Positions 3,997 through 14,962 of a stretch of DNA of 64,000 nt are shown here, one piece after another. The notes under the pieces are model-generated. The model saw only the letters and a list, made by a program, of their open reading frames with translations, searched no databases and was not told where the DNA came from. Position 1 is the stretch's first letter. Every line of letters starts with the position of its first letter. A program made the position numbers and the translations under genes. This DNA comes from an uncultured Chitinophagaceae bacterium (GTDB taxonomy: Bacteria > Bacteroidota > Bacteroidia > Chitinophagales > Chitinophagaceae), in contig CALLZY010000042.1 in NCBI GenBank assembly GCA_937858715.1, positions 55,271 through 119,270 on the forward strand, in the 5' to 3' direction.

Positions 3997-4686
3997 TTAT
4001 GAAGGGGTGGGGAGTATGGTTTCGGTTTTTGATTTTGCAGATGCGGGGTCGATGATGATGCGGTTGTTTTTGTAGTTGAGATAAAATTCGGGATGGGTTG
4101 ATTTGAAGAGGAGAACCAGTTTGTCCATGCGGTAGCGCAGCAGGTTGCCTGCCTGGCGGAAGAGTGTGACGAGTGCGGTTCCCTGTGCGGACCTGTTGCT
4201 TACAGCGTTGCGGGGTTCGGGTGCTGCGGATTCGTAGGCCAGGATTGCGGTCATGAACTCGTCGAGGCGGGACTGAGAGATACCATATGCTGAAAGTGCG
4301 GGCAGGTTTTCAGTGGCGGCTGCATGAATATTGCGGCAGATGGCGGGGAGCAGCAAATCCTTCTTCCGCATTAAAGTGGTGTAAGAGAAATTTACCTTAT
4401 ACCTGAGTTCCATATTGCCGGATGCAACGGCACTGGCGAAGACGGCAGCCGCAACGGTGGTGGCGGCGGTGCTTACTGTTTTTTTCTTTTGGGTTTTATC
4501 TTCGGTGACACCGAGGATAACGAGGATTTCGGCACGGGCTGCGGCCCTGATGGCATCAACCAATGAGGTGAACTCGGCAGTTGCCTGTTGAAAAGCGGGG
4601 ACGGTGGCGATGACAGCAGTGTTTGCGGCGCAGTAAGTGCTTACTGCATTGAACATACCAAGCCTTGCTTCCTGTTTTGCATTCAT
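3997..4686 (-). CDS. Conserved Bacteroidota hypothetical protein, Ala-rich and helical
   Basis: 229-aa ORF resembling a recurrent Bacteroidota family (MN.KQE...MF.AV...; MDKLV..FK..HPEFY..YK..R.IIDP); visibly more GC-rich than its neighbours. Confidence 0.75.
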   Translation of the reverse strand: MNAKQEARLGMFNAVSTYCAANTAVIATVPAFQQATAEFTSLVDAIRAAARAEILVILGVTEDKTQKKKTVSTAATTVAAAVFASAVASGNMELRYKVNFSYTTLMRKKDLLLPAICRNIHAAATENLPALSAYGISQSRLDEFMTAILAYESAAPEPRNAVSNRSAQGTALVTLFRQAGNLLRYRMDKLVLLFKSTHPEFYLNYKNNRIIIDPASAKSKTETILPTPS

Positions 4687-11611: not shown

Positions 11612-12136
11612 TTACCAGTTTGAGAAAAGTTGGTTGAAAATTTCATCAGTCATCGTCCGGATCATTTCATCCTTGAGCGAACTTTCGGCCTGCTGCAGGG
11701 TTTGGTTTCCCTTAAAGTCAAAACCTTTTGAAACATCATGTTCGCTCACCTTATCGGCCTTACGGTCATTTAAAACAATATGAATGCCTACTGTAATTCT
11801 GTTGTTGGCGGCCTGCTGCCCGGAAATAGCCGATGTGCTGAGCGAATAATCCCTTATCTCGCAACTCAGTTCCCAGTCGGCATTGTCGTTATTGGTCTGC
11901 GACATTTTTGTTTGGGAAAGAAATTTCTGGCGCAGCTTTTCTGTTAATGCCGGGGCCAGTTGCGGGTTGATGTATTGCGCCCGGTTTTCAACCAGGTTGA
12001 TTTTAATTGTCTTGATAGAATCGGGAACAGAGGCATCACTGAATTTATAAATGCCGCAACCTGTGTTGGAAGCAACAGTTATAAATACTGCGATGGCAGC
12101 AGCCAGAACGAAAGCTATGCGGGTTAAATTTTTCAT
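11612..12136 (-). CDS. LptE-family lipoprotein
   Basis: Lipobox-like NTGC-GIYKFS; usual position after the sigma-54 activator in Bacteroidota. Confidence 0.75.
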   Translation of the reverse strand: MKNLTRIAFVLAAAIAVFITVASNTGCGIYKFSDASVPDSIKTIKINLVENRAQYINPQLAPALTEKLRQKFLSQTKMSQTNNDNADWELSCEIRDYSLSTSAISGQQAANNRITVGIHIVLNDRKADKVSEHDVSKGFDFKGNQTLQQAESSLKDEMIRTMTDEIFNQLFSNW

Positions 12137-13389
12137 TATTCTTCTATGTCGTATTCTTTCAGTTTGCGGTACAGGGTTCTTTCGCTGATGCCCAGGTCGA
12201 GAGCGGCATCTTTTCTTTTACCCTTGTGTTTTTTCAGCGCCTTAATGATCAGTTCTTTTTCCTTATCAATAATGTTCAGGCTTTCGTCCACTTCTACATG
12301 CTCCTGTATGTCGCTCATGCCGATGGTAACAGGCACAGCAGGCTGTGTAATGGTATTGCCCGCCTGGTTTTGCAATACCGGCTGCTGCATCATTACGGGT
12401 TGCAGCATATCGGTTTGTTTCAGTTCGTTGATAAAGGCCGGGTTTTGCTGCGCCAGTGCCGGGTTCTGCACCACATCCAAAAACATCCGCTTCAGTTCTG
12501 TTACATCTTTCTTCATATCAAAGAAAAGTTTGTAAAGGATTTCTCTTTCGTTGGCAAATTCATGGCTGCTCACATTGTTGGAGGCCAGCACAGGCAACCT
12601 GTTGTTGGAATAAGGCTGCAAAAACTTGCTCAGCACTTTGGCCGTTATCAGTTTGTCTTGTGAAAGAACTGAGATTTGCTCTGCAATATTCTTCAATTCC
12701 CGCACATTTCCGGGCCAGGGGTAGTTTATTAACAGTTGTTTCGCTTCGTCATCAAGCTGCACAGAAGCAGTTTTGTATTTGTTGGCAAAGTCAGCCGCAA
12801 ATTTCCTGAACAGCAGGTGAATGTCTTCGGGCCTGTCGTGCAGGGCAGGCACCCGGATAGGAACGGTGCTGAGGCGGTAATAAAGGTCTTCCCTGAACTT
12901 ACCGGATTGTACCTGCTGCAACAGGTCTTTATTAGTGGCGGCGATCACCCGCACATCAGTTTTCTGTGTTTTGGAAGAACCCACACGGATGAACTCACCG
13001 GTTTCAAGCACACGGAGCAATCTTGCCTGTGTGCCGAGGGGCAGTTCGCCTATTTCATCAAGAAAGATGGTGCCGCCGTTTACTGTTTCAAAATAACCTT
13101 TGCGGGCATCTACAGCACCGGTAAAGGAGCCTTTCTCGTGGCCGAACAATTCTGAATCGATAGTGCCTTCGGGTATTGCACCGCAGTTAACAGCAATGAA
13201 GGGGTTATGTTTCCGGGCAGAAAGGGAATGAATGATCTGCGAGAAAACTTCTTTACCCACACCGCTTTCACCATTAATTAAAACAGTAAGGTCGGTATTG
13301 GAAACCTGTGACGCCACCTGCAACGCATAGTTGAGGGCAGGGGAGTTACCAATAATGCCAAAACGGTTTTTTATACTTTGAATGTCCAT
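12136..13389 (-). CDS. Sigma-54-dependent Fis-family activator (AAA+ and HTH, no receiver domain)
   Basis: GESGVGKE, ELFGHEKGSFTGA, FLDEIGE, FREDLYYRL, WPGNVREL, LGISERTLYRKL. Confidence 0.93.
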   Translation of the reverse strand: MDIQSIKNRFGIIGNSPALNYALQVASQVSNTDLTVLINGESGVGKEVFSQIIHSLSARKHNPFIAVNCGAIPEGTIDSELFGHEKGSFTGAVDARKGYFETVNGGTIFLDEIGELPLGTQARLLRVLETGEFIRVGSSKTQKTDVRVIAATNKDLLQQVQSGKFREDLYYRLSTVPIRVPALHDRPEDIHLLFRKFAADFANKYKTASVQLDDEAKQLLINYPWPGNVRELKNIAEQISVLSQDKLITAKVLSKFLQPYSNNRLPVLASNNVSSHEFANEREILYKLFFDMKKDVTELKRMFLDVVQNPALAQQNPAFINELKQTDMLQPVMMQQPVLQNQAGNTITQPAVPVTIGMSDIQEHVEVDESLNIIDKEKELIIKALKKHKGKRKDAALDLGISERTLYRKLKEYDIEE

Positions 13390-13400
13390 CTTTATTTTTT

Positions 13401-13435
13401 TAATTATTAATTAATAATTACTAATTAATAATTTC
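13401..13435. repeat. Solo heptamer tract (5 x TAATTAN) overlapping the miaB stop
   Basis: taattat taattaa taattac taattaa taatttc. Confidence 0.6.
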
Positions 13436-14962
13436 TCCGATTAAGGTCGCCTGAGTACAATCGTCCACTCTCACATTTACATAGTCGCCTTTCTTTAATT
13501 CATAATTTCTTTTGGGAAACACCACCACCTTATTCTGCGAGTTTCTGCCCATCCAGTGTTCTTCGCTGCGCTTGCTGGTGTTTTCAATCAGTACCTTACA
13601 GGTTTTACCCAGGTCTTTCTGATTGCTCTCCAGCGACAGGCGGTTTTGCATATCCACAATTTCCTGCAGCCTTCTTTTCTTTACCTCAGTGGGCACATCA
13701 TCCTTATATCTCCTTTCAGCCAGTGTGCCGGGGCGTTCGCTGTAGAAGAACATATAGCTCATATCGTATTTGCTGTATTCCATAACACTCAGCGTATCCT
13801 GGTGGTCCTGTTCTTCTTCGGTACAGAAACCGGCAATAACATCTGAAGAAATACCGCAGTCGGGCATAATTTCCCGGATGCGGTCAACCCGGGCCATATA
13901 CCATTCACGGGTATAGGTTCTGTTCATCAGTTGCAACACTCTTGTAGAACCGCTTTGCACCGGCAGGTGAATGTATTTGCAGATATTTTCATGCTTCGCC
14001 ATGGTATGCAGCACATCATCCGTTATATCTTTTGGGTGAGAGGTAGAGAAGCGAACCCGCAGGTCGGGTGAAATAAGGGCCACCATTTCGAGAAGACGGG
14101 CAAAAGTAACTGCCTCCCTGCCCTCCAAAGGAGGGTTCTGAGAGCCTGATAAATCTGCAGCCGTTTTATCTATCGGAAACTTATTGCTTTCGGGTTCTGA
14201 AGCCCCTCCTGCGGAGGGATTTGGGGAGGCCTGATAATAATAGCTGTCCACATTCTGTCCCAGCAGTGTTACTTCCCGGTAGCCTTTTTCAAATACATCC
14301 CTGCATTCTGCTACAATACTTGCTGCATCGCGGCTTCTTTCACGGCCACGGGTAAAAGGTACCACACAGAAAGAACACATATTGTTGCATCCCCTCATAA
14401 TGCTGACAAAGGCACTTACACCATTTGAGTCTAACCGCACCGGTGAAATATCGGCATAGGTTTCTTCACGGCTCAGCAGTACGTTCACAGCCTTTTGACC
14501 TCCTTCGGCCTCGGCCACCAGTTCGGGAAGGGCACGGTAGGCATCCGGGCCTACAACGATGTCAACCAGCTTTTCTTCTTCCAGGAACTGCGACTTCAGT
14601 CTCTCGGCCATACATCCCAGCACACCCACCAGCATTCCTTTTTTCTTTGCCTTCAGCTTTTTGAATTCGGTGAGTCTTTTGCGGACAGTCTGCTCGGCTT
14701 TTTCCCTGATTGAGCAGGTGTTTACAAAAATCAGGTCGGCTTCTTCAATATTGCGGGTAGCGCCAAATCCTTCCTTATTAAGAATGGACGCCACGATTTC
14801 GCTGTCGGCAAAATTCATTGCACAGCCATAACTTTCTATAAAAAAACGCTTTTTATATTCGTTGGGGTCGTTCTGAAATGGGGCATAGGCTTCCCCTTGC
14901 CGGGATTCATCATGCTGGTCCCTGTTGCTCAGGGGAAACTTATCTGTCACTGTATCAATCAT
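13421..14962 (-). CDS. miaB: tRNA-2-methylthio-N6-dimethylallyladenosine synthase MiaB
   Basis: [33 protein letters not shown] radical SAM motif, C-terminal TRAM domain. Confidence 0.97.
14112..14230. repeat. Palindromic REP-like element inserted in frame in miaB
   Basis: GCCTCCC...GGGAGGC termini; internal hairpins CCCTCC-aaa-GGAGGG (14121-14135) and CCCTCC-tgc-GGAGGG (14204-14218). Confidence 0.8.

Follow-up and report, generated by a model that had tools for sequence, protein, structure and literature searches.

A Palindromic Miniature Element in Frame within miaB Shares Its End Modules with DUF559 Nuclease Cassettes

The Rickettsia palindromic elements (RPEs), reportedly described by Ogata and co-workers in 2000, are said to be repeats that lie in frame within genes. 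RPEs and the Coxiella QMITEs are known examples of prokaryotic palindromic repeats or MITEs (miniature transposable elements with inverted repeats) that are carried in frame (PMC10969869, PMC3184786, PMC5896051). Here we describe a palindromic element that lies in frame in miaB, the gene of a tRNA-modifying enzyme, within a stretch of 64,000 nucleotides (nt) from an uncultured Chitinophagaceae bacterium (GenBank assembly GCA_937858715.1, contig CALLZY010000042.1, positions 55,271 to 119,270; hereafter the window). The insert in MiaB is a nuclease-less, two-ended miniature of a repeat family whose larger members are cassettes with a DUF559 domain. This family resides in housekeeping genes without breaking them, and the strand-to-helix loop that follows the GQNVDSY motif of MiaB has been occupied repeatedly in Chitinophagaceae by different versions of the element.

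Two further groups of known systems bear on this locus. The BoxC/PIT/TMECO repeats of E. coli and other bacteria have the same three-block design as the units of the family described here, and the E. coli version folds in vitro as a stable triplex, as seen by circular dichroism and nuclear magnetic resonance (Holder et al., 2015, PMC4666352). That study, which links TMECO sites to rearrangements, is silent on nucleases, on reading frames and on Bacteroidota (PMC4666352). Homing endonucleases with the Vsr fold are also known, including I-Bth0305I (PMC3239194, PMC2677866), and a large survey of PD-(D/E)XK enzymes groups DUF559 with Vsr, with no comment on cassettes of the kind reported below. 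We found no paper that joins in-frame palindromic repeats, triplex repeats and Vsr-fold homing endonucleases.

The element within MiaB

The genome (4.4 Mb, 282 contigs) has a sole miaB, with one match in its own contigs. The encoded protein has the Pfam domains UPF0004 (residues 39-138), Radical_SAM (186-391) and TRAM (451-512), and retains all residues that are invariant in 54 orthologues. Its alignment to the solved B. uniformis MiaB (7MJV, E = 6e-159) breaks at query residues 244/283 (chain residues 223/228) and resumes at residue 283, leaving about 38 query residues (245-282) without a counterpart. The break coincides with the insert, which spans A245-A284 between the LLGQNVDSY strand and the VTFARLLE helix (Table 1).

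At the DNA level, the insert is a nested palindrome. A preliminary description made from the sequence had placed an in-frame palindromic repeat within the radical-SAM domain, and its structure is as described there: positions 14112-14230 end in perfect 7-nt inverted repeats (GCCTCCC and GGGAGGC) and contain two hairpins, CCCTCC-aaa-GGAGGG and CCCTCC-tgc-GGAGGG. The element also has arms of 29 nt that are 72% complementary. An extra C at 14231 belongs to the repeat consensus GGGGAGGCC, which brings the miniature to 120 nt, or 40 codons. The ends are indeed inverted, and they are more than the inverted repeats that had been proposed, each consisting of a hairpin and a mirror-repeat third segment. 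In the 5′ end module a mirror pyrimidine segment is followed by a spacer, the hairpin and a conserved inner flank; in the 3′ end module the hairpin is followed by a short CA spacer and a mirror purine segment. The RNA of the miniature folds at a predicted −50.7 kcal/mol, compared with −40.2 ± 3.7 kcal/mol for shuffled sequences (z = −2.8; 0 of 200 shuffles as good). Of the coding-strand frames of the miniature, just the one in use is open, and a single minus-strand frame is open as well. The 90% cluster of the protein contains four variants of the same species, encoded on 14 contigs from several sources; the insert is identical in every case and is therefore not an assembly artefact.

An AlphaFold2 model of MiaB, built on the 54-orthologue alignment (mean predicted local distance difference test score, pLDDT, 71.8), superposes on MiaB 7MJZ with a template modelling score of 0.76. 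Residues 243-284, between the model strand and helix given in Table 1, form coil, with pLDDT below 50 for residues 251-280, so that modelling the loop, a check suggested in the preliminary description, predicts it to be disordered. The model, taken with the tolerance of inserts in many species, suggests that the segment is a surface loop. Tolerance of the loop is itself suggested by its recurrence in many species, and is supported by the identical insert in the four variants. The host protein would simply gain a disordered loop, elements of this kind being multiples of three in length with one stop-free frame.

Outside the element, the miaB stop and the start of the next gene downstream, which encodes a sigma-54-type regulator (12136-13389), are set apart by a 40-nt run almost wholly of TTAAT/TAATT words (window 13390-13433).

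Table 1. Positions of miaB, the inserted element and its parts in the window
Feature	Position	Strand	Description
miaB (tRNA-i6A37 methylthiotransferase)	13421..14962	minus	Open reading frame, 513 aa, intact
LLGQNVDSY codons (conserved strand)	14240..14266	minus	Just upstream of insertion point; L233-Y241 invariant in 54 orthologues; model strand 230-234
Two-ended miniature element, 120 bp	14112..14231	minus	Encodes A245-A284; includes last base of Q244 codon
5′ end module	14187..14231	minus	Coding orientation GGCCTCCCC-AAA-TCCCTCC-gca-GGAGGGG-CTTCAGAACCCGAAAG; encodes 15 residues
Interior	14141..14186	minus	46 nt of unique sequence with small central hairpin (inverted repeat I3); encodes 15 residues
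3′ end module	14112..14140	minus	Coding orientation CAGAA-CCCTCC-ttt-GGAGGG-CA-GGGAGGC; encodes 10 residues
VTFARLLE codons (helix start)	14087..14110	minus	Just downstream of insertion point; model helix 287-295

A repeat family shared with DUF559 cassettes

The ends of the MiaB miniature recur at no fewer than 13 other places in the genome, with 87-97% identity, and some of these lie in other coding sequences, where the preliminary description had proposed to look. The 5′ end module shares 90% identity over 40 nt with the 5′ end of a DUF559 cassette in cinA (contig C40, C40:21280-21319) and 83% over 67 nt with an in-frame copy in an icmF-like gene (C214). It also matches five solo copies (C6, C45, C32, C77 and C214:17175), at 94-97% identity over stretches of 32-36 nt. 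The 3′ end module is 93-97% identical to the ends of two further two-ended miniatures (C42:18374-18402 and C69:12223-12249). A structural scan of the genome finds at least 34 units at about 30 places; the genome has five two-ended miniatures and two DUF559 cassettes.

Each unit opens with a pyrimidine arm, followed by a loop and a purine arm; then come a spacer, either TTT or CA, and the purine arm again in mirror form. The consensus, (TCT)AAAG-CCCCTCC-nnn-GGAGGGG-TTT-GGGGAGG-CC, is stop-free in all six frames. The third block is the mirror image of the purine arm, and neither its complement nor a direct copy. The mirror is kept despite changes in the stem, for example in GGAGAGGGG-ttt-GGGGAGAGG, GGGGGA-ttt-AGGGGG, GGAGGGA-ttt-AGGGAGG, GGGAGG-ttt-GGAGGG and GGGGAG-tta-GAGGGG; 13 asymmetric stem types retain it, including all ten GGAGGGG hairpins. 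Third segments match as mirrors in 32 cases versus 14 as direct copies, and the direct fits are near-symmetric sequences. We therefore reject a direct-repeat or alternative-hairpin origin of the third segment, since asymmetric stems keep the mirror and not the direct copy. This genome has 17 matches to the pattern CCCTCC-N3-4-GGAGGG-N1-5-GGGAGG, and the reversed pattern, taken as a control, has none in any of the 81 genomes scanned. These counts, like the recurrence of the ends, go beyond what chance would give. The units thus have the three blocks of the triplex motif (TMECO/BoxC, class II). Judged by sequence, the end modules, each a G/C-rich hairpin with a purine arm followed by its own mirror, have the logic of an intrastrand DNA triplex: a pyrimidine arm, its purine complement and a mirrored purine block are just the parts that an intrastrand triplex of the purine motif would call for, and the complementary strand would fit the rules of the pyrimidine motif.

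Many units lie within genes. Deep within long open frames of this genome, and flanked on each side by Pfam domains, units are found in ilvA (threonine dehydratase), in genes for an FGGY kinase, an IcmF-like mutase (icmF-like) and an APH-like kinase, and in recQ, aroA (EPSP synthase) and a Sno-like helicase gene, the copy in the last being a two-ended miniature. An empty aroA site is seen in relatives. Gene-borne copies in pyrimidine orientation nearly always use the frame ...ASPNPSxGGA..., with one metagenomic MiaB using another, and the ends read as Pro/Gly/Ser-rich linkers (ASPNPSxGG..., ...PPxEGxxEA). Other units occupy short operon spacers. Outside the window, two-ended miniatures or paired units are present in the spacers of leuC-leuD (C42:18375-18515), trpE-trpG (C10:23200-23343) and pntAA-pntAB-pntB (C240:5604-6097); the leuC-leuD copy provides the last LeuC residues and the stop codon (...SLPNPSEGGL*).

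DUF559 (PF04480) is a Vsr-like (Vsr-fold) nuclease domain. The genome contains two such domains, neither of them free-standing: both lie in frame within housekeeping enzymes, CinA and leucyl-tRNA synthetase (cinA and leuS), and both are bounded by units of the family found in MiaB. The cinA cassette lies in a 581-aa open frame that corresponds to CinA/PncC, with the Pfam order MoCF_biosynth, DUF559, CinA_KH, CinA. Its 5′ start, GCCTCCCCAAACCCCTCCgcgGGAGGGGCTTTGGAACCCG, encodes 13 residues and is nearly identical to the MiaB 5′ end, and its 3′ end is a C-rich unit of the same design. In leucyl-tRNA synthetase the DUF559 domain is set between TMECO-like ends. The cinA/pncC gene with its intact cassette occupies C40:20830-22572. 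Database searches return 849 proteins (320-1017 aa) with a cassette like that of cinA, most of them CinA/PncC and some methionyl-tRNA synthetases; hundreds are annotated simply as nicotinamide-nucleotide amidohydrolase, and the cassettes in methionyl-tRNA synthetase are closely related (56-64% identity).

The same association holds across the genus. In 80 other genomes, open frames of 400-1180 aa contain roughly half of the DUF559 matches, and 15 of the 18 in-frame cassettes inspected have strictly defined units no more than 90 nt away. The preliminary description had linked the design to repeats at the flanks of DUF559 genes in Bacteroidota, and this link is borne out both in the genome itself and in its genus. 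The pyrimidine form is always at the 5′ end of a cassette and the purine form always at the 3′ end. Cassette 3′ ends are often of the short-spacer type R-CA-Rm, and in one genome (G053) the 3′ end of the cinA cassette, ...GGGAACCCTCCTTTGGAGGGCAGGGAGGC, is the very sequence of the MiaB 3′ end. The MiaB miniature, in frame with its host, has the polarity of the cassettes and both of their end types, and has no nuclease. Furthermore, in 31 DUF559 loci of 3 kb each, nearly every unit is at most 90 nt from the nuclease domain, where the background density is about one unit per 130 kb.

Units, scored by the T-type pattern, and DUF559 also occur together at the level of whole genomes. Of the 81 genomes of the genus, 42 contain both; DUF559 stands alone in 11, units stand alone in none, and both are lacking in 28 (Fisher p = 4e-13, which overstates the evidence, the genomes being related); restricting the count to genomes of at least 2.5 Mb gives 42, 11, 0 and 4 (p = 0.003, likewise inflated by kinship). 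The absence of genomes with units only is the pattern expected if units depend on the nuclease.

The main rival explanation is that the units are self-standing REP/BoxC-like repeats, spread by a host process or an unknown enzyme (for example, through replication or repair at triplex-forming DNA), that DUF559 settled later between pairs of units, and that the MiaB miniature is a unit pair owing nothing to the nuclease. Several observations fit such an origin. Solo units (about 25) far exceed cassettes (2) in this genome; units lie in short operon spacers, as REPs do; 9 of 13 free-standing DUF559 genes in the genus have no strictly defined units; and TMECO sites are reported as rearrangement hotspots (PMC4666352). 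No MiaB with a DUF559 domain is present among about 240 orthologues (79 genus genomes, 80 genome loci and 80 metagenome loci). Nor does the interior of the miniature resemble significantly any of 28 DUF559 cassette interiors (best score 24, null 21.6 ± 2.3). Descent of the miniature from a cassette by internal deletion accordingly finds no support in this comparison, in which the ends alone are shared. What speaks against self-standing repeats is that units never occur without DUF559 in the 81 genomes, that they crowd around the nuclease domain far above background, and that the miniature has the 5′/3′ polarity and end types of the cassettes. We consider this rival improbable, while giving it more weight than either of the two alternatives discussed below.

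The pairing potential of the ends raises the question of whether the element is absent from the mature enzyme. The two ends can pair and would bring the flanks together, as would suit an intron-like or intein-like element that is removed after transcription or translation. However, Rfam gives no intron or other family match (the sole hit, below threshold, is a plant miRNA hairpin), and there is no Hint/intein domain and there are no splice-junction residues in the MiaB insert or the cinA cassette. The length is always a multiple of three with one frame always open, neither of which an excised element would need. Removal at the RNA or protein level is thus extremely unlikely. An intein or intron with a homing endonuclease was rejected on the same searches: DUF559/MTES_1575 was the sole Pfam match of the cinA cassette, and the MiaB insert had no match.

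Repeated occupation of the MiaB loop

The loop between GQNVDSY and (V/I)TFA is 11-12 aa long in 49 of 80 Chitinophagaceae orthologues and in most members of the genus, which identifies the segment as an insertion, as the preliminary description held; a homologous loop of similar length without the palindrome, or a lack of other copies in the genome, would have told against it, and the baseline loop is of 12 aa and other copies are present. The figure of about 40 added residues given there needs correcting, the net gain over the baseline being about 33 aa. Long loops of 27-52 aa occur in 12 of the 79 genus genomes with a miaB match, in 8 of 80 genome loci (two of them duplicating genus genomes) and in about 11 of 80 metagenome loci. 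An element of this kind lies at precisely this position in roughly one in seven Chitinophagaceae orthologues. A pyrimidine-form unit right after YYQ/YW and a purine-form unit just before (A)(V/I)T bound nearly all of the inserts. In different species they belong to different unit subfamilies and their peptides are unconserved; the insert peptide of this genome, used as a query of a protein database, returned just the protein itself.

The site is found in many states. In three genomes (G091, G062 and G046) one element is nested in, or abuts, the remains of another; G023 and a few more retain a single unit; and two (G021 and G054) have long loops with no palindrome remaining. A MiaB tree from which the loop was omitted places the carriers in no fewer than four clades, mixed with short-loop species, and within the genus one clade is rich in long loops. 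Length also varies in a second way: in G001 and G048 the loop contains a GGGAGTC-type heptamer microsatellite (GTCGGGAGTCAGGAGTCGGGAGTCGGGAGCC) read as ...VGSQESGVGSQ.... In four fragmented metagenome-assembled genomes of the genus (G043, G007, G058 and G002) the miaB match breaks off at a contig end that lies at or close to the loop, as would be expected if repeats there break short-read assemblies.

The closest comparison is with the sister species G044. The two MiaB proteins are 93% identical and the flanking DNA is 87% identical, whereas the G044 insert, of the same length, is 56% identical and has both ends from other subfamilies. As a control, a single aroA unit common to both species is 86% identical, like its flanks. 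The occupant of the MiaB loop has therefore been replaced or renewed since the two species split. Beyond these two species, the closest relatives have loops of 15-17 aa, and the element is absent from the nearest short-loop relatives, G003 and G018.

These comparisons also bear on whether the insert is an old, lineage-specific extension that is useful to the enzyme or its mRNA, with the palindrome kept by selection and not by mobility. Such an extension would be in keeping with the fixation of the insert in all sampled variants of the species, with the frequency of long loops in one clade and with hairpins that stay perfect while sequences differ between species. It would not be expected to share its end sequences with about 30 unrelated genomic places and with the surroundings of nuclease genes, to give way to short loops in the nearest relatives outside the sister pair, to derive from different repeat subfamilies, sometimes nested, or to encode an unconserved peptide. 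We regard a functional host loop as very unlikely.

The MiaB loop marks a position in a radical-SAM enzyme that appears to tolerate 30-50 extra residues, which may be useful for protein engineering. It is also a natural experiment, being empty, occupied, nested or decayed across dozens of related species, and one site in so many states makes gain, renewal and loss datable.

Origin of the element and comparison with known systems

As the best overall explanation, we consider it probable that the insert is a selfish miniature of the DUF559-linked family, moved or renewed by a DUF559 nuclease acting in trans and persisting through read-through translation. A selfish element would have entered the MiaB loop, or replaced an earlier occupant, after the lineage of this genome and G044 had diverged from those of G003 and G018. 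Its movement or renewal would be the work of a DUF559 nuclease provided in trans, presumably acting on the structured ends or on the conserved target, with repair by copying amounting to a homing-like gene conversion. Translation into a harmless linker would make the element nearly harmless, and this would allow it to persist.

Besides the points that favour self-standing repeats, several results weigh against this explanation. The genome has no second full-length copy of the MiaB miniature and its interior matches nothing else there, leaving recent transposition unproven. Presence/absence polymorphism within the species is not seen, all 14 contigs with the four variants carrying the insert, and a metagenome scan for empty miaB alleles of the same species gave nothing closer than 80%. 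There is no consistent target-site duplication or target motif at about 25 occupied miaB loops and the aroA site. Eleven genomes have DUF559 without a T-type unit, as counted above. Finally, the end subfamily of cinA cassettes likewise varies between species at a single site, so that turnover of ends by gene conversion could explain the difference between this genome and G044 without a new insertion; independent insertion in the two species is accordingly unproven.

A broader proposal is possible, and we put it forward tentatively, with clear doubt. The units may be intrastrand-triplex signals that are recognised and processed by DUF559, in an undescribed class of mobile element that settles in conserved loops of essential genes, is translated through without intron or intein, and sheds nuclease-less miniatures; the BoxC/TMECO repeats of E. 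coli, which have long lacked an explanation and one of which lies near the DUF559 gene ycjD, might be relics of it. If the DUF559 link is causal, it would give a role to a very common domain of unknown function and account for the origin of the BoxC/TMECO triplex repeats. If true, harmless read-through would be a third way, beside introns and inteins, for a selfish nuclease element to live in essential genes.

Among the described systems, RPEs and QMITEs are alike in being short multi-copy palindromes, placed in frame in housekeeping genes that stay intact, and in presumably being read through as an added surface segment. The family shares both hallmarks of the RPE kind, a palindrome with many copies in the same genome (at least 34 units, with the five miniatures and two cassettes) and in-frame copies in intact conserved genes (miaB, aroA, ilvA, recQ and others) with empty sites for miaB and aroA. 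It differs in belonging to a free-living Bacteroidota lineage, in ends built of a hairpin and a mirror repeat, and in larger members with a DUF559 nuclease; a sequence relation to RPEs is not expected. A classical MITE, as the deletion derivative of an insertion sequence, was rejected: inverted ends are present, but there is no recognisable duplication at the miaB or aroA junctions, and the larger relatives encode DUF559 and not a transposase.

The REP/REPIN-RAYT systems likewise combine scattered solo hairpin units with inverted doublets, their units flank a single-copy enzyme gene, and repeats and enzyme co-occur across genomes. Here, in contrast, the enzyme is a PD-(D/E)XK nuclease of the Vsr fold and not a Y1 HUH transposase, the units have no GTAG/CGTC tag and many copies lie in coding sequence. 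A RAYT partner was rejected, the one Y1_Tnp gene of the genome (PF01797, contig C75) having no unit on its contig and the units flanking DUF559. The homing endonuclease genes of inteins and group I introns also place a small nuclease gene beside the most conserved motifs of essential genes, at sites that are occupied, decayed or empty in relatives, as in a homing cycle. Unlike them, the cassettes described here have no Hint domain and no intron RNA, are apparently tolerated by read-through, and have structured inverted ends and nuclease-less miniatures.

In E. coli K-12 (NC_000913.3, about 1351190-1351470; L265:4195-4245 and 4330-4470), ycjD is followed, about 165 nt downstream, by a BoxC/TMECO motif, CCCCTCACCC-taa-CCCTCTCCCC-aga-GGGGCGAGGGG. 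Between the two are a partly duplicated 3′ end of ycjD and another G/C hairpin. With some 30 TMECO copies in 4.6 Mb, this closeness is unlikely to be due to chance. The BoxC/PIT/TMECO repeats share with the units the succession of pyrimidine arm, loop, purine arm, TTA/TTT spacer and mirror purine block, and are likewise G/C-rich, multi-copy, sometimes in inverted pairs and tied to local rearrangement. TMECO has been described as intergenic, with no enzyme partner and no in-frame copies, whereas the units described here form the ends of cassettes and miniatures that lie within genes.

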